A DNA stretch of 64,000 nt from Micavibrio sp. (GCA_020718085.1 DYDB01000001.1:218891-282890), one strand, 5' to 3'. Shown: positions 18,865-39,180, counted from the first letter of the stretch. Program-made: numbers and translations. The notes: generated from the sequence alone by a model not told the origin.

Positions 18865-18926
18865 GCCCCCTCTCCCTACAGGGAGAGCCTGCCTGTCCGG
18901 TAGGCAGGGGCTGGGGTGAGGGTTGG
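18865..18926. repeat. Nested-hairpin miniature repeat (CCCCCTCTCCC-N-GGGAGAG..GGGGCTGGGGTGAGGG)
   Basis: Family copies at 26742, 31745, 37365 and 38996. Confidence 0.8.
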
Positions 18927-18974
18927 TAAAAATGTATAAGAATTAAATATGCGCGTGTTGGTGGTCAAAAAACA

Positions 18975-19003
18975 TTGACAAATTGACGATTTTGGTGTAT
19001 AAT
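18975..19003 (+). promoter_or_regulatory. Perfect consensus sigma70 promoter TTGACA-17-TATAAT
   Basis: TTGACA at 18975-18980, TATAAT at 18998-19003. Drives the 19061 gene. A TTATCCACA 9-mer lies at about 19028. Confidence 0.55.
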
Positions 19004-19060
19004 CGAAAGTTAGTCGTTATTTTACATTTATCCACACATTCAACCTGAAGAGGGAATGAC

Positions 19061-19885
19061 ATGATGAAATTTTTTGCAGTATGCATGATGTTCTTGTGTT
19101 TTTGTGGCAGCGTTTCTGCAGAAGTTAATTCATACGCAGAACGTACGGAAGTGTATGATCAATGGATGAAAGCCGCAAAAAACATCGCTGGTGACGATGA
19201 GGGAGCAAAAGATGTGCTTGATTTCATCATTGCCAATGAGCAAAAGTCCATGCCGATCTATACAGATGAAGGACTCGGAATTCGTCCACTATTAAATGGT
19301 GTGCAAAAAGAAGCAAAAAGTTTGCTGGTCATCTGTCTCATGCCTGGAGATGAGAATACATCTCCGGAATGGTTTGAAACGACGGATAATAGTTTTGCTG
19401 CAGGGTTCATGGGAGATGAAAGTATGTCTATCATCGTTTTGCGTGCACAAGCACAAATGAGCGATGTGTGGAAAGGTCTACTCTTTCTTCATGAAGGTTT
19501 TCACGCTATGGCACACGTCAAAAAATTCTTTGCAGAAGAAAAAGATCCCTTACGTCATCGTGTGATCGAGGAATACTTCGCATATGCCATGGAATTCAAT
19601 CTTTTGAGAAAGTATGGAGGCAAGGCGTATGAAACACTTCTCGATAAGGAGGTTGTCCGTATCAAAAAAACCGACAAAGTTGCACCAGAGTATGGTATGT
19701 ATGAAAAAGAGCTCACACGAATCTTTGGTAAGTCTGTTTCACAGCGTGAAACGTTTTTGCGAGAGACGATCTTTTGGCTCAATGCACAGTTTCAAAAGAT
19801 TGCCGATGAGGTGAAGCCGGAAAAGGTGGATGATGCCATTGCAACTTTTCTTCTTGGATGTTATCAAAATGAAATTTTGCAATAA
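19061..19885 (+). CDS. Secreted protein with an HExxH zinc-metallopeptidase-like motif
   Basis: N-terminal signal peptide (MMKFFAVCMMFLCFCGSVSA) and an HEGFH motif. Confidence 0.55.
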   Translation: MMKFFAVCMMFLCFCGSVSAEVNSYAERTEVYDQWMKAAKNIAGDDEGAKDVLDFIIANEQKSMPIYTDEGLGIRPLLNGVQKEAKSLLVICLMPGDENTSPEWFETTDNSFAAGFMGDESMSIIVLRAQAQMSDVWKGLLFLHEGFHAMAHVKKFFAEEKDPLRHRVIEEYFAYAMEFNLLRKYGGKAYETLLDKEVVRIKKTDKVAPEYGMYEKELTRIFGKSVSQRETFLRETIFWLNAQFQKIADEVKPEKVDDAIATFLLGCYQNEILQ

Positions 19886-19901
19886 GTGAAAATGAACGAC
19901 A

Positions 19902-19943
19902 AATACCCCGTAGATGTAAATCATCTGTGGGGTATTTTAATTT
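19902..19943 (+). terminator. Intrinsic terminator
   Basis: AATACCCCGTAGATG..CATCTGTGGGGTATT hairpin followed by TTAATTTT. It lies inside the GTG-extended recQ ORF, which argues for the later ATG start. Confidence 0.5.
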
Positions 19944-19986
19944 TGTCCGGTGGCAGAAAAGTGCAAAACGCGGTATATTAAAAGCT

Positions 19987-21762
19987 ATGAAAAAACTTCT
20001 CAAAAAACATTTCGGATATGATGATTTTCGCTCAATACAAGAGGAAGTGATCACGCAGTTTGTCAACGGTCGAGATGTTGTGGTGGTAATGCCGACTGGC
20101 GGGGGAAAATCTCTCTGTTTTCAGTTGCCTGCGCTCATGCGAGACGGTACGATGATCGTGATCTCCCCGCTTATTTCATTGATGAAAGATCAGGTGGACG
20201 CACTTCGCGCCAACGGTATTGCGGCGACTATGATCAATTCTTCCATTGCACCGGAAGAGATCGACATACGCATGCGCGATGCACAAAAAGGGAAATTCAA
20301 ACTGATCTATATCGCACCGGAACGACTTGCCAATGCCCGGGTACGCAATTGGTTGGAACAGATCAATGTAAATGCGCTTGCAGTGGATGAAGCACATTGT
20401 ATCTCGCAATGGGGCCATGATTTTCGGCCGGACTATCGTAATTTAAAACTCTTTCGTGAAAAATTTCCACAGATTCCGATCATAGCACTTACAGCATCAG
20501 CAACACAACATGTGCGTGATGATATTGTACGAGAATTAAATTTACATGATCCGGAGATCTTCGTATCCGGATTTTATCGAAACAATCTTCATCTGCGTGT
20601 CGTACCAAAAAGCGGGGCAACCGATACGATCATGCGATTGATCAAAAAACATGCGGGAGAATCTGTGATCGTCTATTGTTTTTCACGTAAAGAAACGGAA
20701 GAGCTGGCACGTATTCTCGTGGCGGAAGGTGTGAGCGCGGGAAGTTATCATGCAGGCATGAGCGTGGAAGATCGACACAACACACAAGATGCCTTTGTGC
20801 GTGATGAGATCAACGTGGTTGTTGCAACGATCGCTTTTGGCATGGGTATCGACAAGCCCGATGTGCGATTGGTCATCCATAAGACATTTTCCAAAACGAT
20901 CGAAGGCTATTATCAAGAGATTGGACGCGCCGGTCGTGACGGACTTACGAGTGAATGTGTGTTATTGTTTTCCGCGGGAGATAAAATGAAATTGGATTAT
21001 TTTCTCAACGATATTGCAGACGATGAACATCGCGCTCGTGAAGAAAAAAAGATCCGAGAAATGATGGATTATGCACAATCCCGTGTGTGTCGTTGGCAAT
21101 GGATCACGGCGTATTTTGGGCAAGCCGGCTTACCCGCATGTGAAACATGTGATGTCTGTATGAGTGCACATGATACGGAAGACGCTACTGAGATCGTACA
21201 GAAGATCCTCTCTGCTGTTGTGCGTACAGGCAATGTATTTGGCAAAGGGCATATTGTAAAAGTGTTACGCGGCTCGCAGGACAAAAGTGTTCTGGCACGC
21301 GGACATGAGAAGCTTTCTGTTTGGGGCATTGCCAAAGAATATTCTACGGCAACGCTGATGGAATACTTTGCACATATCGTGGCACGCGGTTTTGTTGTGC
21401 GTAATAGTGGAGAATTTGAAACATATCGCATTTCAGCAAAAGGCATCGTTTTTCTCACACAACATGAAAAGATCCAGCTGCCAAAAGTAAAAGAGATCGA
21501 TACACATGTGACACGTCGTGATCATGCGCTTTCGTATGATGCGGATGTGTTCAATGCACTGCGTGCACTGCGTAGGCACATTGCAGATGAGCAAAACGTT
21601 CCGGCATTTGTCATTTTTGGCGATGTGGCGCTTCGGGAGATGTCACACTATTTACCGACAACGCCGCATGAATTTGCCAAAATTTCCGGTGTAGGTAGTC
21701 AAAAACTGCAAAAATATGGTGATATTTTTACAGCACGCATCAAAGAATTGAAGGGTGAGTAA
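19987..21762 (+). CDS. recQ: ATP-dependent DNA helicase RecQ
   Basis: Helicase motifs (MPTGGGKS, DEAH, SAT), a zinc-binding domain and a C-terminal HRDC domain. ORF track starts at 19927 (GTG); ATG chosen at 19987. Confidence 0.9.
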   Translation: MKKLLKKHFGYDDFRSIQEEVITQFVNGRDVVVVMPTGGGKSLCFQLPALMRDGTMIVISPLISLMKDQVDALRANGIAATMINSSIAPEEIDIRMRDAQKGKFKLIYIAPERLANARVRNWLEQINVNALAVDEAHCISQWGHDFRPDYRNLKLFREKFPQIPIIALTASATQHVRDDIVRELNLHDPEIFVSGFYRNNLHLRVVPKSGATDTIMRLIKKHAGESVIVYCFSRKETEELARILVAEGVSAGSYHAGMSVEDRHNTQDAFVRDEINVVVATIAFGMGIDKPDVRLVIHKTFSKTIEGYYQEIGRAGRDGLTSECVLLFSAGDKMKLDYFLNDIADDEHRAREEKKIREMMDYAQSRVCRWQWITAYFGQAGLPACETCDVCMSAHDTEDATEIVQKILSAVVRTGNVFGKGHIVKVLRGSQDKSVLARGHEKLSVWGIAKEYSTATLMEYFAHIVARGFVVRNSGEFETYRISAKGIVFLTQHEKIQLPKVKEIDTHVTRRDHALSYDADVFNALRALRRHIADEQNVPAFVIFGDVALREMSHYLPTTPHEFAKISGVGSQKLQKYGDIFTARIKELKGE

Positions 21763-21879
21763 TGACAAATATCACTAAAAAGAGGTTTGACATCAGTAGA
21801 TATTTATATTATCATATAAGTTCGTTCTTTAATTATGCAAGAAGCATGAACATCAAAAATTCTTTCAGGGAGAGAGAAC

Positions 21880-23031
21880 ATGGCATTTACTTTCAAAGGT
21901 AAGGTTGCAGAAGTTGGTGATCTGGAGCAATTAGCTCGTGTAACTGAAAACATTGCGATATGGAATCGTATAAAACGTTGTGATGTTGTGATAGCGAAGG
22001 CAAGTGAGATTATGACACAGGATATTGATCAGATAATCGCCTTCATACGAAGTTGTAAGCACAATATTTTGATCTACGCTATTTTGCGCCTGTACATTGT
22101 AAGATATGGTGCAAAAGATTTTGCGAATGCTGATGCGATAGTTTCATTGATCAATGTTGTGAGGAATTTTTCACAAGAAGGCGCAGCACAATTGATCGAT
22201 CTGCTCTTTGCTCAAACCCCGCAATTTTTTGTTGTACCGGACAATGCAGACACATCGGTACTGACGGATTTATTGCGTAATGTCTCTCAGCTTATCACGA
22301 AAATAGATAACTTTGATCTTCTGCGAGATGGTGTCATACGTGAATGCGATCTTTTTGCAAGTGATATTGTCACATACATGGCGCAAGCGATCGTGAAGGG
22401 GCATCCTGTGAAAACGTTTTTTGAATCAACGATGGTTGTGAACTATGAATGCGACCTGATCGTTGCAGTGGCACTGACAGAGAATGTACGCGTTGCTGTG
22501 TTGATGGAATTGCTTGCCAGTGATGTTTTCACTGATCCGCGAAAAAGAACAATAAATTTCATCAGAAGCACGGTTCATTTTTTTATTGAATCTTTAATCG
22601 TCGCGGCCCGACGTGAGAAAACTATATTCACGTTGCATGAATTGTGCGTCATCGCGCAAAACATCATTGATGTGAAAAATGATGGCAAGTCATCAATGGT
22701 CGAGGAAATGTTCGTGATCACAGCAGCACTGCCACTCTTTTGTAAGGAAAATGATGTGATCACTTTAAGCAAGGCGTTTGGTACCGCATCGGGTAGGCAT
22801 GCATTGATATGTTCATTTTTATCCGCGTGTACGAGTCTTACCAATTACCAGCTGAAAATGCTTGCGGAGTTGGTGGGAACAACAAAATATGGTGGTAAAG
22901 AAGCAATGGATCAATTGCGTATCGCCAAAGAAAAATTCGGTTTAACAGCTGATATTGAGAAAGATCTTGATTTTGCAAATAACAGATTTCCACTTATGTC
23001 TGGTTTGTTTATCGAAATACGCGAAGTATGA
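21880..23031 (+). CDS. Hypothetical protein; paralog of the 26908..28203 protein
   Basis: Shared C-terminal block L(T)xxQLKxLAxxV..G.EAxxQ.xxAKExF.L..D.EK.L with the 26908 gene. Confidence 0.6.
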   Translation: MAFTFKGKVAEVGDLEQLARVTENIAIWNRIKRCDVVIAKASEIMTQDIDQIIAFIRSCKHNILIYAILRLYIVRYGAKDFANADAIVSLINVVRNFSQEGAAQLIDLLFAQTPQFFVVPDNADTSVLTDLLRNVSQLITKIDNFDLLRDGVIRECDLFASDIVTYMAQAIVKGHPVKTFFESTMVVNYECDLIVAVALTENVRVAVLMELLASDVFTDPRKRTINFIRSTVHFFIESLIVAARREKTIFTLHELCVIAQNIIDVKNDGKSSMVEEMFVITAALPLFCKENDVITLSKAFGTASGRHALICSFLSACTSLTNYQLKMLAELVGTTKYGGKEAMDQLRIAKEKFGLTADIEKDLDFANNRFPLMSGLFIEIREV

Positions 23032-23057
23032 GATCCAATCTTTCGGATGATGGGAAA

Positions 23058-23094
23058 CTGGCATGATCTCAAACAGATCTGCCAGTTTTTATTT
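23058..23094 (+). terminator. Intrinsic terminator
   Basis: CTGGCATGATCTCAAACAGATCTGCCAG followed by TTTTT. Confidence 0.6.
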
Positions 23095-23145
23095 TGTATG
23101 GATCATATAGTTCCATATTTTGTGTTTTTATGATTAAATATACAG

Positions 23146-23577
23146 ATGGCTACAGATCACTATACAACGCTTGGCGTACAGAGAACAGCAACGCAAAAAG
23201 AAATTAAGGCGGCTTTTCGTGCGCTTGCGCATACACATCATCCGGACAAGGGTGGTGATGAAAAGAAATTTCAAGAGATCAATCGTGCCTATCAAACGCT
23301 CTCCAACACAGAAAAGCGTTCGCAGTATGATCGTTATGGCGAGGCGGCACAAAGTTTCAATGGATTTGGCGGGGGTCAAGGTGGTTTTGAACATGCACAA
23401 TATTATACGCATTTCACACGAGGGTATACAGATCAACGATTTACAATGTCGTCACTCAAAAAGATCCCTTTTTTGACATGGATCATGCTCTCGCCGTTGA
23501 TCATTCTGGTTATATTTTTTGGTGCGATTATTTTGGGCGTGTCACTCATACGATCAGTGAGTCGCAGTTTGAAATAG
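23146..23577 (+). CDS. DnaJ (J-domain) protein with a C-terminal TM helix
   Basis: J-domain with an HPD motif ([23 protein letters not shown]). C-terminal hydrophobic segment. Confidence 0.75.
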
Positions 23578-23599
23578 TTGTATATGATAGAGAAATGTA

Positions 23600-23634
23600 A
23601 AAAGGATGAGAAGATCGATCTTCTCATCCTTTTA
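23600..23634. terminator. Bidirectional terminator between convergent genes
   Basis: AAAAGGATGAGAAGATCGATCTTCTCATCCTTTT. Confidence 0.6.
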
Positions 23635-23645
23635 TCTTTGGGTTA

Positions 23646-24851
23646 TTAGGATAAAACAACCATGCGGCGATTCTTGATCACTTGGCACAGATGTTCCGAC
23701 GTGAACAACACTGCATCAAACATGACATGCAACACGATCGCATAGATCAGTCCATGTGTGAATGCAACGTAGAACATATAGATCCCGATCACATAACTGT
23801 TCAACATCCCTGAAGGTCCTTGGTATTTATGACCATCGCGAAATTTTGCGTTGCTCCATAAAATCGCGCCAACATACAAGAGATACGTCCAGTGGTCGCT
23901 ATTTTCAGGCAGAATCGGCATGTGAGCAATTGCGCCAATTCCCAGTGGAATGCAGTAGGTGCTCCACGCTGAGAAAGATAACACGCGTGTGAAAAATTCA
24001 ACGATGCTCATCGAATAATTTTCCTTTGCGCGGCATACGGCTACTGTGATACCCAGACATACTGCCATAGACAGTCCAATGCTGATTGCAAGAGTTGATA
24101 TGTCGGAGGCGAGCCACTGGAAAAGCGCAAATATATATCCGTTGAATTGATAGATCACATTCTCCGGAATATATGCTTTCATTTTCAGCACAACAATGAA
24201 CGAAAAAAGAAAGACCGGTCCAGAGATCAAAAAGGGAACTTCAAATTTTGCCAGAATGAATACACAAAGACATACAGCCAGTGCAACGATGATCCATGGC
24301 AGAAATGCGTTTGAAAGATAGACCGAGATCAATCCAACAAATATCAATAAACTTCGGTGGTTAAACTCTTCGGTTACGCCAGCCTCAATTGATACGAGCC
24401 ATTTGAGTGGCAGGGATTCTGCCATAACGGTTCCGTCTTCATGGGCGTCATTACTTCCAAACCAGTCTAACTGACCACAAAAGAATGCATAGAGCGCCAT
24501 GGGTGTGCCGATTACAACAATCGCTTCCCAGAAATGTCCGTTAACATCCATATAGGAGAACGGATCAAATTCTGTGAAAAACCACTTGCTGAGAACATAC
24601 CAGAGTAAGATGTTGAATAGCATAAGTCCGACCTTGAGGAACATGTTCAAATAAATTCCTGCCCGGACTTTTGCATCTCCTTCGCGCGATGCTGTGAGAA
24701 AATGCTTCCATAAACGGAGTTGATTTTTTGTAAACTGTGCACCGGATACGACTGAATCAATGCCAGTGTTCAGCCAATTGATCCAGGTAATATTTCTGCC
24801 TTTTCGTTGCACGAGACTGCTGAGGATGTATTTTACAAGCATTTCTAACAT
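23646..24851 (-). CDS. Polytopic membrane protein, CPBP (CAAX protease / Abi)-like intramembrane protease family
   Basis: At least 8 TM helices, an EExxxR motif (EEFNHR) and a downstream conserved His. AAAGGAG RBS. Confidence 0.55.
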   Translation of the reverse strand: MLEMLVKYILSSLVQRKGRNITWINWLNTGIDSVVSGAQFTKNQLRLWKHFLTASREGDAKVRAGIYLNMFLKVGLMLFNILLWYVLSKWFFTEFDPFSYMDVNGHFWEAIVVIGTPMALYAFFCGQLDWFGSNDAHEDGTVMAESLPLKWLVSIEAGVTEEFNHRSLLIFVGLISVYLSNAFLPWIIVALAVCLCVFILAKFEVPFLISGPVFLFSFIVVLKMKAYIPENVIYQFNGYIFALFQWLASDISTLAISIGLSMAVCLGITVAVCRAKENYSMSIVEFFTRVLSFSAWSTYCIPLGIGAIAHMPILPENSDHWTYLLYVGAILWSNAKFRDGHKYQGPSGMLNSYVIGIYMFYVAFTHGLIYAIVLHVMFDAVLFTSEHLCQVIKNRRMVVLS

Positions 24852-25067
24852 GAGTACACTCCTTTGGTAGAGTTTTGCGATTGGATAATTAGTATCCTAA
24901 ATATTTTGGATAAAAAAGAACAACTGCGAATCATAACACAAACACAATAATATGTCAAAGATCTAAAATCACATGAAATTAGTCTAAAAGAAGAAATAAT
25001 TGTAGAATAAAAGGAGAAAAAGGCTTGTGTAATGATATGAGCTTTACAAATAATTCACAATAATATT

Positions 25068-25511: not shown

Positions 25512-25553
25512 AAAATAGACGTTTATTTTACAATTGCAGAGAGGGGGAAAGTG

Positions 25554-25847: not shown

Positions 25848-25859
25848 CTGCATACGCAT

Positions 25860-26197: not shown

Positions 26198-26225
26198 ATA
26201 CATGTATAATATATTTTTGCAAATG

Positions 26226-26741: not shown

Positions 26742-26790
26742 ACCCCCTCTCCCTCCGGGAGAGGGTTGGGGTGAGGGATAGCGTGAGGGT
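26742..26790. repeat. Nested-hairpin miniature repeat (CCCCCTCTCCCTCCGGGAGAGGGTTGGGGTGAGGG..)
   Basis: Member of the family seen at 18865, 31745, 37365 and 38996. Confidence 0.8.
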
Positions 26791-26907
26791 GAAATTGACT
26801 TTCAGTCAATTTTGACGTAGTATAATATGTTGTACATTAACAGGTTTATAAACTGCATATCTGTTTTTTGCATGTTATTTGGTAGATCAATCTATGGAGG
26901 AAATGAG

Positions 26908-28223: not shown

Positions 28224-28265
28224 AACCGGGTAGTTCTCAAAAGAGATCCACCCGGTTTTAATTTT
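28224..28265 (+). terminator. Intrinsic terminator
   Basis: AACCGGGTAGTTCTCAAAAGAGATCCACCCGGTT followed by TTAATTTT. Confidence 0.6.
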
Positions 28266-28486
28266 GCTTGCGAATACGTGTTCAGTATAAGAGTGAAATG
28301 GTTGTAGCTGGAAAATGAAAAATCGACATTACTATAAAAAGAAAACCACCACAGAAGTGGCAGCTCTTTTGGTGTTTGGCACCTTCTGATATTATACACC
28401 AAAAAATACCTTTTGTAAAGTATCGGATGTACATATGGCAGTTAGTGACTATTCACCATTTTTCAAAAAATACCTTTAAGATCATT

Positions 28487-28563
28487 GTCATTGCGAGGAG
28501 GAACGACGAAGCAATCTAATTCATCAGATATGCCGTTCGTCACCGTGTTCCTCGCGAAGACGC
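28487..28563. repeat. GTCATTGCGA..GAAGCAATC module repeat with a partial inverted partner
   Basis: GTCATTGCGAGGAGGAACGACGAAGCAATC; family copies at 31702, 36356, 37425 and 39048. Confidence 0.6.
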
Positions 28564-28593
28564 TACTCTTATGGCAGTTATGCTGGACAGTGA

Positions 28594-30319: not shown

Positions 30320-31678
30320 ATGGAGCATAACGATCTGACAAAAGGTAATATCTCCAAGCAGATAAAAATGATCGCAGTACCCGCGAGCATCGGCTTCTTT
30401 TTTAACACGATGTACAATGTTGTGGATACCTATTTTGGCGGACTCGTGTCAACCGATGCTCTGGCGGCATTATCTTTATCCTTTCCTGTGTTTTTTATTA
30501 TCATTGCACTTGGATCAGGCGTGTCAACTGGAGCAACTGTTCTTATTGCAAATGCACTTGGCGCCAAAGACGAAGACCGTTCACGATTGTATGCATTGCA
30601 AGCATTGAGTTTTTCTGTGATCACAAGTGTGATTTTGACAGTCGCCGGATACTTTGTTGCACCTTTTCTATTTACTGTTTTGGGCGCAACAGGTGATTAT
30701 CTTGCAATCTCGGTATCATATATCAATATCATATTACTGGGGTCGGTATTTTTTGGATTGACATTTGTAATGAATGGTATCTTGAATGCACGAGGGGATA
30801 CCAAAACGTTTCGGAATTTTTTGATCTTTGGATTTTTTCTCAATTGCATTTTGGATCCAGTATTTTTATTTGGCCTATGGGGCTTTCCGGAGCTTGGTCT
30901 TCCGGGTGTTGCGTGGGCTACATTTTTGATACAAGTGATTGGTGTTGTATATATGGGAAGCGTTCTTATAAAAAAAGATATTTTTTGCAAAGGTTGTTTT
31001 CATATGTTCTATCCGAAAGTGCAATATTTCAAAGAGATCGCACAACAAGGATTTCCCGCAAGCTTGAACATGTTGACGATCGCTGTTGGTATTTTCATCA
31101 TCACGTATTTTGTTGCACCGTTTGGAAAAACCGCAGTCGCTGCATATGGCATTGCAACAAGGATCGATCAGATCGCATTATTACCGACAATTGGACTAAA
31201 TATTGCAGCATTGACTCTTGTGGGGCAAAACAACGGTGCTAAGAAATTTGATCGATGCGTCACGGTCTTCCAGACGTCGTTGCGATACGGGTTTTATGTT
31301 TGTGTGATTGGCATGATCGGTGTGTATTTTTTTGCGAGTCAACTTATGGGATTATTTACACATGATGCAGATGTATTGCATGTAGGTATACATTATTTGC
31401 GCATCTCCGTTTTCATCTATTGGGCATATATGATCTTGTTTATCACCGTATCGGTGTTACAAGGTCTCAAAAAGCCGAACTTTGCTCTATGGATCGGTGT
31501 GTATCGTCAAATTCTTGCACCTGTATTGTTTTTCTACGTGTTTAGCAAAATGCTCGGATGGGGAGCTGATGGTGTGTGGTGGGGAATCTTTGCGATCAAC
31601 TGGACAGCTGTTGCAATCACACTTTTGTATGCGCGACATGTAATGAAAAATATTTTATCAGTTACTGCCAAAGAGTAG
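30320..31678 (+). CDS. MATE-family efflux transporter
   Basis: 12-TM profile, 452 aa and MATE-like conserved loops. Confidence 0.8.
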   Translation: MEHNDLTKGNISKQIKMIAVPASIGFFFNTMYNVVDTYFGGLVSTDALAALSLSFPVFFIIIALGSGVSTGATVLIANALGAKDEDRSRLYALQALSFSVITSVILTVAGYFVAPFLFTVLGATGDYLAISVSYINIILLGSVFFGLTFVMNGILNARGDTKTFRNFLIFGFFLNCILDPVFLFGLWGFPELGLPGVAWATFLIQVIGVVYMGSVLIKKDIFCKGCFHMFYPKVQYFKEIAQQGFPASLNMLTIAVGIFIITYFVAPFGKTAVAAYGIATRIDQIALLPTIGLNIAALTLVGQNNGAKKFDRCVTVFQTSLRYGFYVCVIGMIGVYFFASQLMGLFTHDADVLHVGIHYLRISVFIYWAYMILFITVSVLQGLKKPNFALWIGVYRQILAPVLFFYVFSKMLGWGADGVWWGIFAINWTAVAITLLYARHVMKNILSVTAKE

Positions 31679-31701: not shown

Positions 31702-31785
31702 CGTCATTGCGATCCGCCTCGGGCGGAGAAGCAATCAGAAAGATTTTTAACCCCCTCTCCCTATGGGAGAGGGTTGGGGTGAGGG
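31702..31785. repeat. Composite miniature repeat (GTCATTGCGATCCGCCTCGGGCGGAGAAGCAATC + CCCCCTCTCCCTATGGGAGAGGGTTGGGGTGAGGG)
   Basis: The two hairpin modules are juxtaposed. Its translation gives the spurious ORF ending PSPYGRGLG. Confidence 0.8.
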
Positions 31786-32808: not shown

Positions 32809-32828
32809 GAAGATCAGATCTCACGAAC

Positions 32829-32872
32829 CAAAACAGCACATGACGACACCGTCACTGTGCTGTTTTCTTTTT
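32829..32872 (+). terminator. Intrinsic terminator
   Basis: ACAGCACATGACGACACCGTCACTGTGCTGT followed by TTTCTTTTTTTT. Confidence 0.6.
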
Positions 32873-33057
32873 TTACGTGGCGGTATTGCCAAAAATAATT
32901 ACATCAAGACCGCTTTCATTTTGACATTTTCTCTATTTCCTATACTCTTCAGAGTAAGAAAAAAGGTTTAAACAACAGTAAAGAATAAACTTTTTTGAGC
33001 ATAAAAGTCCATTAACAATGCTTCATAACCGATCAATCACATCTGGAGGAGATTGCC

Positions 33058-34479
33058 ATGAGCAAAGTGCAAGAAGAATTGTTGAAATTACCTGACTTTG
33101 TACAATTGCCAACGTTAGAAAGCCAATTATGTGCTCTGACACCGCACGATGGCCGCTATGCCGAATCGACATATTTACTGGCAAACTATTGTTCCGAAGC
33201 CGGTCTGCAGAGACTGCGTCTTTTGACGGAGATCGAATATCTGATCTATCTCAACCCGCATTTGATCAACAAAGTGGACGAACAGCAATTACGCAATATC
33301 TATGGAGGTTACGACGTAAGCGCCGCCATGCGGATCAAGGAGATCGATCGAAAGATCAATCACGATGTCAAAGCGGTCGAATATTTCATTTGCGACCGCT
33401 TAGATCAATTGAACAAGGGACATCTCAAACCGCATGTACATAAATTTCTCACCTCGGAAGACGTGACCAACGCGGCGATCGGTATGATGTTCTCCTTGGT
33501 GTATGACAAGATCATGCGTCCCGAAATGATGAAACTTCTGCAGATGATTTCTGCCCATGCAAAAATGTGGCAGGGTCAGCCAATGCTTGCTCGTACACAC
33601 GGTCAACCGGCAAGTCCGACAACTGTGGGAAAAGAATTTGCGATCTATGCATCGCGCATTGGTCAGATCATGCAAAAACTGGATGAACTGCCCATCACGA
33701 TCAAATGGAATGGCGCAAGCGGTAACTACAATGCGCACATTGCTGCAGATCCTGCACGTGACTGGTTTGATTTCAGCATCAATTTTGTGGAAATTCATCT
33801 CGGTTTTACGGTTGAGTTGTACACCGCACAGACAAATCATTATCTGTATGTTGCGGACATTTTACATCAATACAAAAATCTGTGCTCTGTTCTGATCGAT
33901 CTGTGCCAAGATATCTGGCTCTACATTTCCTACGACAATTTCAAATTGAAACCAAAGGATGGGGAAGTGGGCTCATCGGTGATGCCACACAAGGTCAATC
34001 CCATTGATTTTGAGAACGGGGAAGGTAACCTGGGACTTGCAGAGATCAATTTTGGCTACTTGGCGAGTAAATTGCAAAAATCCCGTATGCAACGCGATCT
34101 TTCTGATAGTACCACTTTGCGCAATCTGGGTGTGCATTTTGGTTCGTTTCTCATTGCGATCAAAAGTATCATGCGCGGTTTGGGAAAGATCGATATCAAT
34201 GAGCAGAAACTTCTGGAAGATCTCGAAAGAAATCCTGCCATACTTTCAGAAGCGATCCAATCTGTGATGAGAGGGCATAATATCCCAAATGGCTATGAGC
34301 GACTCAAAGAGATCACCAGGGGCAAAGTCGTGGATCTGGATATATTGCGAACGTTCGTTGCTTCACTGAAAGGAGAGCTGCCTGCGGGAGCTTTTGATTA
34401 TCTCTTTCATACAGTTCCCAGTGCATATACCGGACTAGCCGAGCAGTTAGTGGAAAATTGTTTGGATGAAGTGACCTGA
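33058..34479 (+). CDS. purB: Adenylosuccinate lyase
   Basis: Fumarate-lyase signature GSSVMPHKVNP. 473 aa. GGAGGAG RBS. Confidence 0.9.
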   Translation: MSKVQEELLKLPDFVQLPTLESQLCALTPHDGRYAESTYLLANYCSEAGLQRLRLLTEIEYLIYLNPHLINKVDEQQLRNIYGGYDVSAAMRIKEIDRKINHDVKAVEYFICDRLDQLNKGHLKPHVHKFLTSEDVTNAAIGMMFSLVYDKIMRPEMMKLLQMISAHAKMWQGQPMLARTHGQPASPTTVGKEFAIYASRIGQIMQKLDELPITIKWNGASGNYNAHIAADPARDWFDFSINFVEIHLGFTVELYTAQTNHYLYVADILHQYKNLCSVLIDLCQDIWLYISYDNFKLKPKDGEVGSSVMPHKVNPIDFENGEGNLGLAEINFGYLASKLQKSRMQRDLSDSTTLRNLGVHFGSFLIAIKSIMRGLGKIDINEQKLLEDLERNPAILSEAIQSVMRGHNIPNGYERLKEITRGKVVDLDILRTFVASLKGELPAGAFDYLFHTVPSAYTGLAEQLVENCLDEVT

Positions 34480-34513
34480 TAATAATCACTGTGTCAAAGA
34501 CACGCAAAAATGA

Positions 34514-34549
34514 ACAGCATATAGCCGCGCTATATGCTGTTTTCCTTTT
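34514..34549 (+). terminator. Intrinsic terminator
   Basis: ACAGCATATAGCCGCGCTATATGCTGT followed by TTTCCTTTT. Confidence 0.6.
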
Positions 34550-34588
34550 ATTCGATATTTTTTCTCATGCTATAAATAACTATAAATT

Positions 34589-34635
34589 GTCATTTCGGAC
34601 ATGCCTGTCCGCCTCTGGTGGAATCCGGAATCTAG
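34589..34635. repeat. Miniature repeat modules (GTCATTTCGGACATGCCTGTCCGCCTCTGGTGGAATCCGGAATCTAG)
   Basis: Shares modules with 321, 37425, 39100 and 39140. Confidence 0.7.
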
Positions 34636-34786
34636 AAAAATTTAATATGTAATGCAAAAATGTTAGTAAAAAATATATTTTAGTCATATCTTGTCGTCCT
34701 GATTTTGTTATAGTATAGTTCCATGTAGAAGTTGAAAGTGAAAAAATTAGTACCTACACAACCATTTTCCAAGAAGGAGACATCGT

Positions 34787-35479
34787 ATGAATTTACTGGC
34801 AAAGGAACAGGAACGGACAGTACAAATATCAGCATTCATGAGTGGTGTATATCTGTGGATGAGCATAGGTCTTCTCATTACCGGCATGATCGCACATTGG
34901 TTCGGCACGACGGGAGAATTGAGCCAGTTCGCACAAAAGAACATGTTTCTCTTATGCATTGCAGAACTGGGTATCGTATTTTACCTGTGTGCACGTATTG
35001 AACGCATGACCGCATTAACCGCACAGATGGCATTTGTCATCTATGCAGCGCTCAACGGCATCACGTTGTCAACGATCTTCATGATATATACACAACAGTC
35101 GATTGCGACCACCTTCATGATCTGTGCAGCAACATTTGCAATGTGCAGTGTCTATGGGTATACCACAAAAAAAGATCTGACGTCCTGGGGAAGCTTTTTG
35201 TTCATGGGGCTCATCGGTCTTGTGATCGCTACGTTTGTGAACGTTTTACTGCAAAGTCCGGCCATACATTTTGCCACATCAGCCATCGGTGTTATTGTTT
35301 TCGTTGGGTTAACGGCATATGATACGCAAAAACTCAAAGCGATGTCTGGCGTGGAAGGTTATCTCGTTCGCAACAAGCAGGTCAGCAACGCGGCGATCAT
35401 GGGCGCATTGGCTCTGTACCTTGATTTCATCAACCTCTTCTTGTTCTTCCTACGATTCTTTGGTGTTTCTCGAGACTGA
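34787..35479 (+). CDS. Bax inhibitor-1 / YccA-family membrane protein
   Basis: 7-TM profile with BI-1-family conserved residues. AAGGAG RBS. Confidence 0.8.
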   Translation: MNLLAKEQERTVQISAFMSGVYLWMSIGLLITGMIAHWFGTTGELSQFAQKNMFLLCIAELGIVFYLCARIERMTALTAQMAFVIYAALNGITLSTIFMIYTQQSIATTFMICAATFAMCSVYGYTTKKDLTSWGSFLFMGLIGLVIATFVNVLLQSPAIHFATSAIGVIVFVGLTAYDTQKLKAMSGVEGYLVRNKQVSNAAIMGALALYLDFINLFLFFLRFFGVSRD

Positions 35480-35506
35480 GATCATTCCACGTAGAAGATG
35501 AATATG

Positions 35507-35545
35507 TGGCGGCAAATCACCGAGTTGATTTGCCGCCATTTAAAT
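35507..35545 (+). terminator. Probable terminator hairpin
   Basis: TGGCGGCAAATCACCGAGTTGATTTGCCGCCA followed by a weak T-tract. Confidence 0.4.
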
Positions 35546-35664
35546 TGTCTTCGCGAGCCCGCTATATGCGGGCGTGGCGATCTATACAAAATTTTGATTA
35601 TTTGATCTGCACATGCTACAGTACAAACATTATTTGGGATCTGTAAACAATCATATTTTTGTGT

Positions 35665-36336
35665 ATGTCACCGATCCTACATCTTCCAAAACATGCTATG
35701 CCGCGTGAAAAACTCATTGAAAAAGGCCCTGAAAATCTCAGAGACAGCGAGCTTTTGGCAATCCTTCTCCGTACGGGTGTAAGAGGGAAGAACGTCATCG
35801 AACTGTCGCGAACTATTTTACAAGATCATCCGACCAAAAAACTGTTGTCACGAAATTACAAAGATCTCGCAAAGATCAAGGGCATCGGCCCGGCAAAGGC
35901 GTGCAATATGTTGGCAGCATTTGAACTGACCAAGCGCGCATTGGACGTGCAAGACAATAATCTTCCATCACTTACGCGCGCGATCGATGCCGTAGCACAA
36001 CTTCAAGAATTACGTCATGCAAAACGTGAGTATTTTGTTGCGCTCTATCTCAATGCACGCAATCAATTGGTGCACAAGGAAACGATCTCGATCGGCACAC
36101 TGAACGCCAGTCTCATCCATCCGCGCGAGATCTTCAAACCGGCAGTGGATCATCTTGCTGCCTCACTGATCGTTGCGCACAATCATCCCTCAGGTGACAC
36201 AGAACCGTCACATGACGATATGATGGTCACCAAAAGGATCACAGAAGCAGGACATATCATGGGCGTGGAGCTCATCGATCACATCATCATCACCCACAAC
36301 GCATTTTACAGTTTTCAAGAAAGAAACATTTTATAG
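35665..36336 (+). CDS. radC: RadC-family (UPF0758) JAMM-motif protein
   Basis: HNHPSGDTEPSHDD JAMM motif and MPREKL..ELLAILLRTG at the N-terminus. ORF 35659 (TTG); ATG at 35665. Confidence 0.85.
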   Translation: MSPILHLPKHAMPREKLIEKGPENLRDSELLAILLRTGVRGKNVIELSRTILQDHPTKKLLSRNYKDLAKIKGIGPAKACNMLAAFELTKRALDVQDNNLPSLTRAIDAVAQLQELRHAKREYFVALYLNARNQLVHKETISIGTLNASLIHPREIFKPAVDHLAASLIVAHNHPSGDTEPSHDDMMVTKRITEAGHIMGVELIDHIIITHNAFYSFQERNIL

Positions 36337-36355
36337 TGCCATACCGATTCGATAT

Positions 36356-36390
36356 GTCATTGCGATCCGCCTCGGGCTGAGAAGTAATCC
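36356..36390. repeat. GTCATTGCGATCCGCCTCGGGCTGAGAAGTAATCC module repeat
   Basis: Family copy. Confidence 0.7.
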
Positions 36391-36490
36391 AGAACCCTTA
36401 AAGATTGAAAAAGCAATATTTTTACAGGTTTCAATAAAAGAATATAATCATATTAACAAGTAATAAATCAATAAATACGGCAATACTTTT

Positions 36491-37261
36491 ATGAAAAATA
36501 ATCTAAACACGATATTATCGCAAATATTAAAAATCATGATGATCTTCTTTTTACTGATCTCTTCCGTCTATATATTTATGCATCTCTTTTTCTACAAGTC
36601 ACATACATTTATCATTGTAGATAACGTTCAAGATGACAGAGCCTCTTTTATTACCAAAAGCCTCAAAAAAATTGCTGAATCATCCGCATTCACCAAAGTC
36701 ATGGATAGTCAGGATGTTTTGCAACTGATAAGTATCTTTGCGATTTTCGGTGGTGTGTTGGCATACATCTTTCAAACCATCGTTAAAGCCGATTTGATCA
36801 ATGAAAATGAGAAGGCAAAATTGGATAATAGAAGATTTACAGAAGCACAAGCATTTAAGACTATAGGACTCGTGGGATATTATCACTATGAGATGGTTAG
36901 AGAAATTGATGAGAAGGACGAGGAAGAAGAAAATGAAGATGATGATGATATTTGTGGAAAGGAAGATCTTTTGAATAAAAATGTACTACTTGATGATGCA
37001 ATAAAACAGACGTACAAAGCTATGGAGTTTGCAAGTGAACTTAACGAAAAAGATTTCAATCATGGACCGCTGTTGTACATCTGCAAAAATAATCTAGCAT
37101 GGTATCTGGCAGAGCGAAAAAATGAAAACGATGCCGAAGAGGCGTGTGCACTTATAAATGATTGCATAGAAAAACTGCACACATACCCCACACATGCGCA
37201 TGCTTGGAAATCAACTTTATGTTTCGTGAATGAAAGATTCAAAAAACAAACAAAATGCTAG
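36491..37261 (+). CDS. Hypothetical membrane-anchored protein with an acidic stretch
   Basis: N-terminal TM helices and an acidic EEEENEDDDD run. Confidence 0.55.
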   Translation: MKNNLNTILSQILKIMMIFFLLISSVYIFMHLFFYKSHTFIIVDNVQDDRASFITKSLKKIAESSAFTKVMDSQDVLQLISIFAIFGGVLAYIFQTIVKADLINENEKAKLDNRRFTEAQAFKTIGLVGYYHYEMVREIDEKDEEEENEDDDDICGKEDLLNKNVLLDDAIKQTYKAMEFASELNEKDFNHGPLLYICKNNLAWYLAERKNENDAEEACALINDCIEKLHTYPTHAHAWKSTLCFVNERFKKQTKC

Positions 37262-37364
37262 AATTCTGGAATAAATTTCATATTTAAAAGCCTGTTTATT
37301 TTTACATTAGTAACTACGTACAGTATATCATAATACTTTCAATATTCAAACATAGAAGAATGAT

Positions 37365-37471
37365 GCCCCCTCTCCCTCTGGGAGAGGGCTGGGGTGAGGG
37401 AAATATTTTCATCCTAACCAAACACGTCATTGCGCCTGTCCGCCTTTGGCGGAAGCATAGAGAAGCAATCC
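37365..37471. repeat. Composite miniature repeat (CCCCCTCTCCCTCTGGGAGAGGGCTGGGGTGAGGG .. CGTCATTGCGCCTGTCCGCCTTTGGCGGAAGC..GAAGCAATCC)
   Basis: All three module types are combined. Confidence 0.8.
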
Positions 37472-37583
37472 ATGATCCGAATTGACACCAATCAGTATTC
37501 CTGCTTTTATTATGGCAAGATATTTTTGTTGTTTTGACAATTACATATAATACACGAAACCACTACACAGGAGGTAAAAAGAG

Positions 37584-38930
37584 ATGGAAAAAAAAGCATT
37601 CACTTCTGCACAAACATTTTTACAATGTATCAATTGTCAGCATACCGCCGATCTGCTGGATGAGCGCACGTTCTCTTGTCCGAAATGTGGCAGTCTCTAT
37701 GATGTTGTGCATAACTCAGATGTGAGCAAGTTACTCGATTTTAACGCATATACAAAGATCTTTGACGAACGCGCGCAATCAAAACATCATCTGTACCTCA
37801 ATCCACGTTCGCGATCCGGCGTATGGCGTTTTCAGGAATGGATCATGCCATATCTGCCAACGCAATACATCACGACGCTTGGCGAAGGTAATGTGCCGAT
37901 CGTTCGTGCCGGCAGATATTTACAGGCATGGATCGGTGATATTGAATTGTGGATCATTTTGGAAGGCATGACACCGACAGGATCTTTCAAAGATTTTGGC
38001 GGTACGGTCATGATCTCTGTAGCCAAGGCTGCCGGGATCAACGCAATCGGATGTGCTTCCACCGGTGATACGTCCGCTATGGCCGCTGCATATGCATCAG
38101 CAGCGGGTATGAGATGTGTCGTTGTATTGCCAAAAAATTTGGTGACTGCGGCACAAATCGCACAACCACTTGTACACGGTGCAACAGTGATCATGCTCCC
38201 GGGAACTTTCGACGTATGCATGCGTGTTGTACGTGAACTTGTGCAAGCAGGTTTACTTTTTCCGGCAAACAGTCTCAACCCCACACGCATTGAGGGACAT
38301 CAGGCGACAGTATTTCTCACAGCACAATTCTTCAATTGGGAATTGCCCGATTTCTTTGGAGTACCGGTAGGCAACGGCAGTAATGGCAGTTCCATTGGTA
38401 AAGGTATTCGTACCATGCAATCGTTCGGCTATACAGGAAAAATTCCGCATATTTTAGGTTGTCAGTCAGAAGCAGCGCATCCGTTATCACTGTCATGGCT
38501 CAAAGCATGTGATGCACGACAAAAGAACGTAGAATCAGCATGGCGTGAAATTTACAAGCCCCAGATGAGCGTTGGCGTTACGACCGCAACTGCTGCATTG
38601 ATTGGTAATCCGGTATCGTGGCAGAAAGTCATTCGCGAAGTGGTTCACACTGACGGGATGATGAACATCGTACCGGAAGCTATGCTCAATGAGGCGGTAG
38701 CTGTATGTGGTAAAGATGGACACTTTGTCTGTCCGCAAACCGGCACAGTTCTTGCAGGCATCAAACAGGCTGTAGAAAGTGGGCAAATCGCCAAGGGATC
38801 ACGCGTTGTCGCTGTGTCCACAGCAAATGGTCTCAAATTCACAGAGTCAGCGACAATGGGGTTGCAGGATACGATCATTCATGCACAGGACTGTAACACA
38901 GAAACAGTTGCAAAGATCATGGGTTTCTAG
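37584..38930 (+). CDS. thrC: Threonine synthase (long form with an N-terminal zinc ribbon)
   Basis: PLP-lysine motif (GSFKD). N-terminal CxxC..CxxC. AGGAGGT RBS. Confidence 0.85.
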   Translation: MEKKAFTSAQTFLQCINCQHTADLLDERTFSCPKCGSLYDVVHNSDVSKLLDFNAYTKIFDERAQSKHHLYLNPRSRSGVWRFQEWIMPYLPTQYITTLGEGNVPIVRAGRYLQAWIGDIELWIILEGMTPTGSFKDFGGTVMISVAKAAGINAIGCASTGDTSAMAAAYASAAGMRCVVVLPKNLVTAAQIAQPLVHGATVIMLPGTFDVCMRVVRELVQAGLLFPANSLNPTRIEGHQATVFLTAQFFNWELPDFFGVPVGNGSNGSSIGKGIRTMQSFGYTGKIPHILGCQSEAAHPLSLSWLKACDARQKNVESAWREIYKPQMSVGVTTATAALIGNPVSWQKVIREVVHTDGMMNIVPEAMLNEAVAVCGKDGHFVCPQTGTVLAGIKQAVESGQIAKGSRVVAVSTANGLKFTESATMGLQDTIIHAQDCNTETVAKIMGF

Positions 38931-38945
38931 AGAACACTCTACAAA

Positions 38946-38985
38946 AACAGTAGTGTCACACAATGTGATACTACTGTTTTCTTTT
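38946..38985 (+). terminator. Intrinsic terminator
   Basis: ACAGTAGTGTCACACAATGTGATACTACTGT followed by TTTCTTTT. Confidence 0.6.
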
Positions 38986-38995
38986 ACTCCAAATT

Positions 38996-39180
38996 CCCCC
39001 TCTCCCTATGGGAGAGGGTTGGGGTGAGGGCATTTTTTATCCCAACTAAACACGTCTTTGCGATCCGCCTCGGGTGGAGAAGCAATCCAGCCCCTTTTGT
39101 CATTCCGGACTTGATCCGGAATCTAGTCTTATGTCATCCCGCCTGTCCGCCTTTGGAGGAAGCGAAATCGAGGAATCCAG
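38996..39180. repeat. Largest composite miniature repeat: all four hairpin modules in tandem
   Basis: CCCCCTCTCCCTATGGGAGAGGGTTGGGGTGAGGG; CGTCTTTGCGATCCGCCTCGGGTGGAGAAGCAATCC; TCATTCCGGACTTGATCCGGAATCTAG; CGCCTGTCCGCCTTTGGAGGAAGCGAAATCGAGGAATCC. Confidence 0.85.

Follow-up and report, generated by a model that had tools for sequence, protein, structure and literature searches.

The intrastrand-triplex motif TMECO of Enterobacteria, also called PIT or BoxC (Hoyne et al. 2000, as cited by Holder et al. 2015, PMC4666352), was reported to form a triplex in vitro with E. coli sequences, seen only with single-stranded oligonucleotides, and to be associated with local genome rearrangement; neither in vivo nor in double-stranded DNA was there evidence that a triplex is stable (Holder et al., PMC4666352). 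An earlier study, as far as it is summarized by Holder et al., detected neither promoter nor terminator activity of the E. coli motif. The consensus was reported only in 262 proteobacterial genomes, with a 13:10 split between the strands in E. coli K-12 and with inverted type A/type B pairs in E. coli.

A second group comprises the CGTC-tagged REPs, a superfamily including dRS3 of Neisseria and RPE-4 and RPE-6 of Rickettsia (Di Nocera et al. 2013, PMC3733652). These are defined by an unpaired 5' tag CGTC (TGTC and CCTC are allowed), a stem of 8-9 bp whose first pairs are A-T and T-A, a 4-5-nt loop, and an unpaired 3-nt tail with the consensus CCA. In the available text of Di Nocera et al. no dedicated transposase is known for them, CGTC-1 of Neisseria is interleaved with other repeats, and some REPs lie inside other palindromes. 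REPINs are short palindromes that RAYT transposases mobilize in trans as hairpins (Bertels and Rainey 2011, PMC3116915). Mixtures of short-repeat families in varied order within the same spacers are the hallmark of the BIMEs of E. coli and the NIMEs of Neisseria. In 2008, Elhai and colleagues reportedly described the SDR repeats of Nostoc and Anabaena, which are said to be 21-27 nt long, nested in other repeats or hairpins, and considered mobile. No paper in the searchable literature treats REPs in Patescibacteria.

Here we analyzed a 64,000-nt stretch of DNA (the window) from a groundwater bacterium of low GC content (42%), which is a Patescibacterium (CPR) close to Moranbacteria.

Results

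Nine intergenic loci carry a mosaic of short-repeat families

A preliminary description of the window had placed repeats at nine sites, always intergenic, and had interpreted them as a single MITE-like or REP-like family shuffled from four modules, a to d. GC-rich modules were indeed present at all nine sites, with 0 matches per pattern in 100 shuffles, the ORF list confirmed their intergenic position, and a repeat search of the window recovered the families independently (D3, D4, D5, and D8). The repeats form hairpins or triplexes of 20-50 bases, several families adjoining and nested within each other, and belong to at least five separate families arranged as a mosaic (a, the b, b', and d types, c, and e). 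They are listed below with the type assigned from their sequence.

319-371, + strand: b-type CGTC REP with a degenerate tag (GGTCTTTACG...GACGAAGCAATGG) and c nested at 328-348 (D5, D8)
18865-18922, + strand: module a interrupted by a 21-nt family e hairpin (18888-18908, CCTGCCTGTCCGGTAGGCAGG)
26742-26778, + strand: intact module a matching the TMECO consensus (26745-26777), between divergent genes (D3)
28486-28518, + strand: b' CGTC REP, TGTCATTGCGAGGAGGAACGACGAAGCAATCTA
28537-28566, - strand: b', degenerate inverted copy
31702-31739, + strand: b CGTC REP with inner hairpin TCCGCC-TCG-GGCGGA, 25 nt past the MatE stop codon (D4)
31750-31785, + strand: module a, intact TMECO-consensus copy
34588-34634, + strand: d CGTC REP, TGTC tag, arms ATTTCGGA/TCCGGAAT (one mismatch), tail CTA
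36355-36392, + strand: b CGTC REP, 20 nt past the RadC stop codon
37365-37472, + strand: composite in which a conserved T-rich spacer (37401-37424) links a (37365-37400) to b (37425-37472) with nested c (37434-37454)
38996-39090, + strand: composite of a (38996-39030), spacer (39031-39052), and b (39053-39090)
39098-39126, + strand: d, canonical CGTC REP with TGTC tag, 8-bp stem ATTCCGGA/TCCGGAAT, loop CTTGA, tail CTA
39132-39180, + strand: d-like CGTC REP (TGTCATCCCG...GAGGAATCCAG) with c nested at 39141-39161

Downstream of thrC the elements thus follow each other in the order a-b-d-d'. The d element at 34588-34634 is located downstream of the purB terminator and harbors c in its loop (34603-34623), and the b+c architecture of 319-371 recurs in a Gottesmanbacteria genome (L010). 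The low-GC defense island at approximately 40-53 kb of the window is free of elements. Some of the families are nearly identical to repeats of E. coli, cyanobacteria, and alphaproteobacteria. The interpretation as a single four-module family was rejected because a, b/d, and c are each distributed separately. The term MITE-like, which implies 50-500 bp, terminal inverted repeats related to an IS element, and a target-site duplication, does not fit either, since the modules are single hairpins of 20-50 nt with no terminal inverted repeats beyond their stems and no clear target-site duplication. REP-like, in turn, proved apt.

Module a matches the TMECO/PIT/BoxC triplex motif

On the basis of an exact consensus fit, module a is assigned to the TMECO/PIT/BoxC intrastrand-triplex motif. 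The consensus CCCTCNCCC-N3-6-GGGNGAGGG-N3-GGGNGAGGG gave four exact matches in the window, at 26745, 31753, 37368, and 38998, and a fifth one (18865) was regained once the 21-nt insert at 18888-18908 had been removed, giving CCCTCTCCC-TACA-GGGAGAGGG-CTG-GGGTGAGGG. This insert separates the purine strand of a from its third strand; it had been taken for module c, with which it shares only GCCTGTCCG, and belongs to the separate palindrome family e. The four intact copies have a perfect 9-bp Watson-Crick hairpin and 9/9 allowed purine-motif triads (G·G:C, A·A:T, T·A:T). In these four the first loop comprises 3 nt, and it is 4 nt long solely in the copy at 18865, so that the originally proposed pattern with an N4 loop matched this one site only. 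After the copy at 26742, the G-rich third strand is partially repeated at about 26783-26792.

Module a showed 95% identity over 40 of 42 nt to E. coli copies. Of 5426 complete E. coli genomes, 5395 carried the motif, at a median of 15 places each; viral contigs yielded only eight matches. As far as the E. coli motif is described via Holder et al. (PMC4666352), module a shares with it the three 9-nt blocks, the triads, and the intergenic site and differs only at the first loop. Unlike those copies, the ones in the window are found in a low-GC Patescibacterium, all lie on one strand, and do not form inverted type A/type B pairs; two are joined to a CGTC REP by a conserved spacer, and one holds a nested hairpin.

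Modules b, b', and d match CGTC-tagged REPs

Modules b, b', and d are assigned to the CGTC-tagged REPs by tag, AT-starting stem, and tail. The tag reads CGTC at 31702, 37425, and 39053, TGTC at 28486, 34588, 36355, 39098, and 39132, and a degenerate GGTC at 319, and the 3-nt tail is CCA (36390, 37470, 39088, 39178) or CTA (28516, 34632, 39124). The canonical d (ATTCCGGA-CTTGA-TCCGGAAT) conforms to the definition in its tag, 8-bp AT-starting stem, 5-nt loop, and 3-nt tail, and thus to all size parameters published in the available text of Di Nocera et al. (PMC3733652); stem and loop of the copy at 34588 also conform when the nested c is allowed for. The b and b' stems likewise start with AT; they differ from the described REPs in that only 5 bp of the outer stem pair perfectly (ATTGC/GCAAT) and that the large loop, 16-35 nt in length, holds a second hairpin. 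The intergenic site and the lack of an associated transposase are further features shared with the superfamily, as is the head-to-head arrangement of 28486-28518 and 28537-28566, a dimer that folds into a long hairpin (-33 kcal/mol). The eight other copies are single or head-to-tail, all on the + strand, in contrast to the usual head-to-head dimers. CPR are not among the host phyla listed in the available text of that paper.

Over its 33 nt, b' was 100% identical to Nostocales plasmid sequences (Calothrix, Aulosira), and d showed 96% identity over 28 nt to a Sphingopyxis plasmid and 93-96% to sequences of Sphingomonadaceae and Treponema.

Mini-hairpins c and e are nested in other hairpins

Module c (CCTGTCCGCC-YTY-GGNGGA) is a mini-hairpin of about 19-21 nt. 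Its exact 21-mer recurred in no fewer than 119 genome stretches spread over more than 10 phyla, mostly CPR, with approximately two expected by chance. The c-bearing stretches (825 kb) contained no TMECO copy and were enriched in CGTC REPs (81 versus 32 in shuffles). Within the window, every c sits inside a CGTC REP, and e (CCTGCCTRCCGGYAGGCAGG, about 20 nt) sits inside a; e also occurs in REP loops. Elsewhere, c occupied the loop of a hairpin whose stem spans 5 bp or more at 25/119 sites, compared with 134/1190 control GA sites (p = 0.005), for example as gtcattcccgc[c]agcgggaatc or in loops of terminator-like hairpins. The SDR repeats, as described, resemble these elements in small size and nesting, and b' matches Nostocales plasmids; c spans more than 10 phyla instead of one order. 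Neither c nor e was found in the plasmid collection or in any paper of the searchable literature. Carriage of c by phages was rejected, as there were zero matches among 2.9 million viral contigs.

At one and the same locus, c is present in four Saccharibacteria species. Sixteen of 123 copies have a tRNA gene no more than 100 nt away, and T-arm-like flanks occur at some; an origin as tRNA T-loop insertion or tRNA intron was rejected since in silico deletion of c restored a tRNA at 0/123 sites, and Rfam models detected only ordinary neighboring tRNAs around the copies. Several c copies in GAAA-type loops suggest an insertion point between G and A, which is not separable from the ends of c itself because the search pattern fixed these bases and few copies were unconstrained. 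A link of c orientation to the replication strand was discarded: the association with skew was weak (65 versus 42, p = 0.03), opposite to the window, and is not relied on.

Related lineages differ in their elements

Assemblies of the same population (L001, L121-L123; 99.8-99.99% identical) are the same through all elements, so insertion polymorphism within the population was rejected. Related lineages, in contrast, differ. The refuting condition set in the preliminary description, namely copies that are not polymorphic between strains and are only syntenically conserved, had a mixed outcome. In a relative whose ThrC is 80% identical, the approximately 103-nt a-spacer-b block (38996-39090) is cleanly absent as one unit, and the flanking terminator, d, and d+c (c included) are conserved. 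Synteny ends right after the repeat cluster downstream of thrC, with metK in the relative and an HD-domain gene in the window. The thrC promoter is conserved, and upstream of it the relative carries REPs different from the a-spacer-b+c of the window. Downstream of PCMT, the region around the a element is not collinear between the two genomes. A relative with 86% GltX identity had one b' in 21.5 kb, and relatives with 67-71% identity had no elements in 48 kb. Neither a clean empty site nor a target-site duplication, which had been proposed as a check, was recovered at the approximately 103-nt indel; it has no terminal inverted repeats, only an ambiguous T run at both junctions.

A search for a cognate transposase had also been proposed as a check. 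Among the approximately 58 ORFs of the window there is no transposase domain and no Y1_Tnp, and none of the modules carries a GTAG tag. Covariance models of Rfam 15 gave no hit in the window at the gathering threshold and none overlapping any element up to E = 5, and a known structured RNA was thus rejected.

Discussion

The elements are probably best understood as non-autonomous REP-type selfish repeats that accumulate at and within existing hairpins, in the manner of BIMEs and NIMEs. Several independent short, structure-forming families, namely the BoxC/TMECO triplex motif (a), the CGTC REPs (b, b', d), and the mini-hairpins c (approximately 21 nt) and e (approximately 20 nt), would colonize CPR intergenic spacers, and new copies would land or survive mainly where hairpins already exist, i.e., in terminator tails, repeat flanks, and repeat loops. 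The outcome would be concatenated and nested mosaics like those of E. coli and Neisseria. The identities of the families, their nesting, their near-identity across phyla, the presence or absence in related lineages, and the lack of a transposase in the window are established by the data. Copying may occur in trans, either by an enzyme encoded elsewhere, plausibly one recognizing single-stranded hairpins as HUH/Y1 enzymes do (RAYT, IS200/IS605), or by host replication and repair, and effects on mRNA 3' ends would be secondary. The novelty is the host and the nesting habit of known selfish REP-type repeats, not a new type of system. Compared with BIMEs and NIMEs, the partners are different (triplex motif, c, e), hairpin-in-loop nesting is prominent, and no IHF-type or other linker motifs were recognized. 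With REPIN/RAYT systems, the elements probably share mobilization as hairpins in trans, and there is one inverted doublet (28486-28566); they differ in that they are mostly singlets, without GTAG tag, and that the window encodes no RAYT.

The lack of a transposase in the window, of a clean empty site or target-site duplication, and of insertion polymorphism within the population counts against selfish accumulation. Three further observations fit less readily with it. First, d and d+c are stable at 80% protein identity, and c is retained at one locus in four Saccharibacteria species; such old, stable copies fit a maintained function as well as slow decay. Second, the single orientation of all nine loci in the window (binomial p = 0.004) is not predicted by random selfish insertion unless it is replication-strand-specific. 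Third, selfish spread by itself does not readily account for exact sequence identity between phyla.

A possible but doubtful extension is that c and e represent an undescribed class of ultra-small mobile hairpins homing into the loops of other hairpins (REPs, triplex motifs, terminators), near-invariant in more than 10 phyla and centered on CPR. If true, a machinery acting in trans and able to copy a hairpin of approximately 20 nt into single-stranded loops would have to be widespread.

We consider it unlikely that the elements are primarily functional RNA modules at mRNA 3' ends, protecting transcripts from 3'-5' exonucleases or serving as attenuators or auxiliary terminators like some E. coli REPs, with concatenation and nesting selected because they add stable hairpins. 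This reading draws on orientation and position: the 15 + strand modules of the nine loci all share the orientation of the flanking genes, co-directional genes border eight of these loci, and four directly follow a terminator. On the + strand, a number of the mismatches in stems are G-T (TCCGCC/GGTGGA at 328, 34603, and 39054; GTAAT at 36381), and the G-rich third strand of a can pair with the T-rich spacer of the two a-spacer-b units only by G-U pairs, which points to RNA. The 260-nt thrC 3' region is much more stably folded than its shuffles (z = -5.9), and d and d+c are conserved in the relative. Among 123 copies in other genomes, c showed no preference for either orientation: it was sense to flanking genes 17 times and antisense 19 times, and inside ORFs, by a crude ORF call, antisense 27 times and sense 19 times. 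At the variable stem position of c, the non-pairing A is the commonest variant (36 copies), the wobble T being present in only 11. Close relatives lack elements at the same genes, and the report of no promoter or terminator activity, as summarized by Holder et al. (PMC4666352), also argues against such a role. The usual position after a gene's own terminator, as claimed in the preliminary description, applied to only about four of nine sites (18865, 28487, 34589, 38996); three come after a stop codon and lack a terminator apart from the element, and 26742 lies between divergent genes and thus upstream of both. A terminator scan found the genes' own hairpins (18760, 34512, and that of thrC) and called no + strand module, its only calls on module a being on the - strand; at the sites inspected in the window, most elements have no trailing T-run.

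Action at the DNA level is distinctly unlikely. Triplexes, cruciforms, or protein sites (gyrase, IHF-like, nucleoid) would shape supercoiling, fork progress, or recombination, and a conserved host protein would explain the near-identity of sequences in very distant phyla. The perfect purine-motif design of four a copies, the in vitro triplex of E. coli with its tie to local rearrangement (Holder et al., PMC4666352), and the synteny break directly after the thrC-downstream cluster are consistent with it. The same study found no evidence that such a triplex is stable in vivo or in double-stranded DNA, no binding protein emerged as a candidate, and the patchy distribution among close relatives argues against an essential chromosomal role, an argument also made for REPs in the available text of Di Nocera et al. 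(PMC3733652). That the similarities are due to chance, assembly, or contamination has a negligible probability: the sequences are short, GC-rich, of low complexity, and from a metagenome assembly, and other assemblies of the population break at the repeats, but zero shuffle matches, three independent assemblies (ENA, NCBI, Logan) identical through the elements, and copies in long contigs with unique flanks across hundreds of independent projects already refute it.

The nesting of c and e in other hairpins provides a concrete loop-insertion signature that any mechanism must account for. The window, in which the elements reach a high local density, bears on the questions of what mobilizes CGTC REPs, what purpose BoxC/TMECO serves, and why repeats are near-identical across unrelated phyla. 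CPR bacteria have genomes of about 1 Mb with very few accessory enzymes. This small genome, together with element-free close relatives, makes a phylogenetic-profile search for a co-occurring enzyme much easier than it would be in E. coli or Bradyrhizobium.

On the practical side, the repeats fragment CPR assemblies and yield spurious ORFs. These had been described as ending in PSPYGRGLG, which holds for the frames closing with this peptide and a stop at 31782 and 39027; those at 26774 and 37397 end in PSPSGRGLG and a stop.

Inventory and genomic context of the repeat modules

Inspection of the sequence identified 15 + strand modules distributed over nine loci and, in addition, one degenerate copy in inverted orientation. 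They comprise a triplex motif (module a), CGTC-tagged REPs (b, b' and d), and mini-hairpins of approximately 20 nt (c and e). The pattern searches found the modules where the preliminary description had placed them, with zero matches expected as judged from 100 shuffles, and a repeat finder independently recovered the families as D3, D4, D5, and D8. The pattern of module a had to be corrected: with the N4 loop originally assigned, it matched at 18866 alone because the other copies have a 3-nt loop, and a loop of N3-6 retrieved four intact copies. A scan of the window (42% GC) for GC-rich islands revealed no further intergenic members.

Modules located in the window
26745, 31753, 37368, and 38998, + strand: module a, intact (pattern search with N3-6 loop)
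31703, 36356, and 39054, + strand: module b (pattern search)
28486-28566: head-to-head dimer of b' (sequence reading)
328, 34603, 37434, and 39141, + strand: module c (pattern search)
39100, + strand: module d (pattern search)

All 15 modules and the inverted copy lie outside the listed ORFs, in line with the intergenic location proposed earlier, and the neighboring genes serve housekeeping functions (gltX, pcm, recQ, a lexA-like gene, a MATE transporter gene, dapB, purB, radC, and thrC). A position just 3' of the gene's own terminator was seen at approximately four of the nine loci, which follow a recognizable terminator hairpin, but three loci directly follow a stop codon and one lies between divergent genes. 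The spurious reading frames attributed to the repeats were recovered at four a copies, where they end in PSPYGRGLG or PSPSGRGLG. The search for a cognate transposase was negative, with no transposase domain in any of the approximately 58 ORFs of the window.

The window corresponds to ENA, NCBI, and Logan contigs of the groundwater metagenome ERR628383 (99.8-99.99% identity, gapless), and the best named ThrC and GltX homologues were exclusively from Patescibacteria (Moranbacteria, Paceibacteria, Azambacteria, and Niyogibacteria). All 27 differences to a second assembly from the same population (L001) fall into two tight clusters, the first (28238-28394) in the spacer that immediately precedes the b' dimer and the second (30616-30685) within the MATE transporter gene; none of the 27 lies inside a repeat. 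This pattern resembles short tracts of recombination or a mixture of strains. Other assemblies of this population (L121, L122, and L123) stop at or within repeats: the start of L123 falls within an a copy, at 37371, and that of L122 lies just past b+c, at 37480; thus, the repeats fragment CPR metagenome assemblies.

Module a matches a known triplex motif

A text search with the sequence of module a led to the work of Holder et al. (2015, PMC4666352), who give the consensus CCCTCNCCC-N3-6-GGGNGAGGG-N3-GGGNGAGGG for TMECO (PIT) and connect BoxC structures of E. coli with triplex searches. This consensus was matched exactly by all four intact a copies, each of which forms a perfect 9-bp hairpin with 9/9 allowed third-strand triads. 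BLAST analysis with the 42-nt module a query gave matches in 5,395 of 5,426 complete E. coli genomes, with identities of up to 95% and a per-genome median of 15 places; the sole difference to the best E. coli copy is in the first loop (TGTG against TATG). BoxC is presumably the same element as TMECO/PIT. In the plasmid collection, a BoxC/TMECO-like motif was present on 319 proteobacterial plasmids from Klebsiella, Enterobacter, Escherichia, Citrobacter, Aeromonas, and Azospirillum, many of them conjugative or mobilizable. This differs from Holder et al. (2015, PMC4666352), who state that they did not find it on mobile elements. The module a motif also occurred in eight viral contigs.

The spacer between a and b (37401-37424 and 39031-39052) is common to both composite units and has the consensus tcatccYaacYaaaca. 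It could pair with the G-rich third strand of a through G-U pairs only; such pairing would compete against triplex formation and suggests that a-spacer-b is an independent unit.

Modules b, b', and d belong to the CGTC-tagged REPs

CGTC REPs are defined by an unpaired CGTC/TGTC tag, an 8-9-bp stem starting with AT, a 4-5-nt loop, and a 3-nt tail that is usually CCA; their superfamily includes Neisseria dRS3 and Rickettsia RPE-4 and RPE-6, and no association with a transposase was found (Di Nocera et al. 2013, PMC3733652). Module d (TGTC-ATTCCGGA-CTTGA-TCCGGAAT-CTA) has all of these features. In b and b', the tag, the initial AT, and a CCA or CTA tail are present, but the outer stem is only 5 bp and the large loop contains a second hairpin. 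Plasmid sequences of Calothrix and Aulosira match b' at 100% identity over 33 nt, and Trichormus matches it at 97%; module d shares 96% identity over 28 nt with Sphingopyxis and 93% with Treponema. A metagenome scan for the G-rich half of a (GGGAGAGGGYTGGGGTGAGGG) with GTC(A/T)TTGCG lying 15-35 nt further on yielded 28 contigs, most with a GC content of 52-73%; approximately a dozen contain the complete ...GAAGCAATCCAG REP. Thus, both families also adjoin in unrelated organisms.

Modules c and e are mini-hairpins of separate families

The exact c 21-mer GCCTGTCCGCCTYTGGNGGAA was present in at least 119 genome stretches, with approximately two expected by chance in the genome collection. CPR lineages form the majority among the matches listed, which further include Gammaproteobacteria, Ignavibacteria, Bacteroidota, Planctomycetota, Bdellovibrionales, Omnitrophota, Kiritimatiellia, Victivallales, Zixibacteria, and Marinimicrobia. 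Conservation around c fades within two flanking bases, indicating a unit of approximately 21 nt. The sequence was found neither in viral contigs nor in the plasmid collection nor in the literature searched.

Every c copy of the window is nested within a CGTC REP. Among the matches listed, 25 of 119 c sites fell within a hairpin loop (stem of 5 bp or more), versus 134 of 1190 control sites (odds ratio 2.1, p = 0.005); many CGTC REPs, GTAG-like repeats, and terminator-like hairpins are among the hosts. Relative to flanking genes, these matches showed no orientation bias (17 sense, 19 antisense), and at the variable stem position a non-pairing A was their commonest variant. Some c copies are old, as exemplified by a common locus with conserved flanks in four Saccharibacteria species (L013, L068, L100, and L116). 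A common locus with conserved flanks was also observed in four Victivallales-like genomes (L069, L103, L110, and L113). Rfam gave no known RNA for either locus, and both may be conserved structured elements containing c.

In CPR genomes, a tRNA gene occurs no further than 100 nt from 16 of the 123 c copies among the matches listed (L003, L007, L048, L064, L091, L092, L107, and others). In L007 and L092, an 11-nt repetition of the neighboring tRNA's 5' end comes directly after c, and in L007, a 55-nt tandem duplication takes in c. Interruption of a tRNA by c was considered and rejected, as removing c restored no tRNA.

The 21-nt insert at 18888 in an a copy has only GCCTGTCCG in common with c and is a member of a separate palindrome family, CCTGCCTRCCGGYAGGCAGG (module e), with 23 matches in the 119 c loci versus one in shuffles and with REP loops among its sites. 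Neither c nor e has the size or the AT start of the CGTC family, and the GTAG tag is absent. The literature searched described neither their loop-sitting habit nor their near-invariance across phyla. The closest known parallel is the small dispersed repeats of Nostoc, reportedly described by Elhai et al. in 2008.

Turnover between relatives

A relative with 80% ThrC identity (L124-L127) has kept the thrC terminator, d, and d+c. The presence/absence comparison gave a divided result: the a-spacer-b block of approximately 103 nt is missing from this relative as one clean gap, but the same-population assemblies match the window without gaps. Upstream of thrC, the two lineages share a nearly identical promoter, with different REPs just beyond it. 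A relative with 86% GltX identity has one b' element in 21.5 kb, and relatives at 67-71% identity have no elements in 48 kb.

The low-GC defense island at approximately 40-53 kb of the window contains no GC-rich repeats, which suggests that it was acquired recently.

about 40459-53309: low-GC island (34-37% GC) with defense-type genes
40459-47201: SNF2/PLD helicase-nuclease and Eco57I/MmeI-like methylase, within the island

A ThsB-like TIR protein, an 8xMP membrane protein, and an Mrr-like nuclease are also encoded in the island.

Nature of the elements

Anatomy, family identities, and patchy distribution fit REP-type selfish repeats that accumulate at and inside existing hairpins, an architecture shared with BIMEs of E. 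coli and NIMEs of Neisseria. Insertion in a loop would spare the host stem, so such insertions should be tolerated, and the loop, as the single-stranded part of an extruded hairpin, could serve as substrate of hairpin-recognizing HUH/Y1 transposases. No mobilizing enzyme for the elements was found. The main alternative is that the elements act at mRNA 3' ends. In its support, all nine loci share the + orientation (p = 0.004), G-T mismatches could pair in RNA, and in both a-b units the third strand of a shows G-U-dependent pairing with the conserved spacer. Nearly all genes of the window are on the leading + strand, so the window cannot distinguish transcription- from replication-linked orientation. 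Against an mRNA role, c lacks an orientation bias elsewhere, locus 26742 lies between divergent genes, T-runs are absent 3' of most elements, and a passage in Holder et al. (2015, PMC4666352) cites an earlier E. coli test that was negative for promoter/terminator activity.

Modules a, b, b', and d represent kinds of repeat already known, here from a new host; no report of REP-type repeats in Patescibacteria was found in the literature searched. The interest of the whole set lies mainly in the cross-phylum sequence identity and in the prospect that small CPR genomes may reveal the missing mobilizing factor.

A second, unrelated repeat family

A 34-nt palindrome, GTAACATAAT-NNN-ACGGCCGT-NNN-ATTATGTTAC, bordered by runs of A and T and unrelated to a-e, occurs six times in the window.

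49693-49726: 34-nt palindrome
50474-50507: 34-nt palindrome
51412-51445: 34-nt palindrome
52117-52150: 34-nt palindrome
52723-52756: 34-nt palindrome
62066-62099: 34-nt palindrome

It was not found in viral contigs. The palindrome does not match the integron attC core GTTRRRY, and no integrase is nearby. The copies are located at junctions of small unrelated genes (Mrr-like, DUF1801, PaaX-like, NUDIX, and others), and the set resembles a cassette array or a shared bidirectional terminator/operator.
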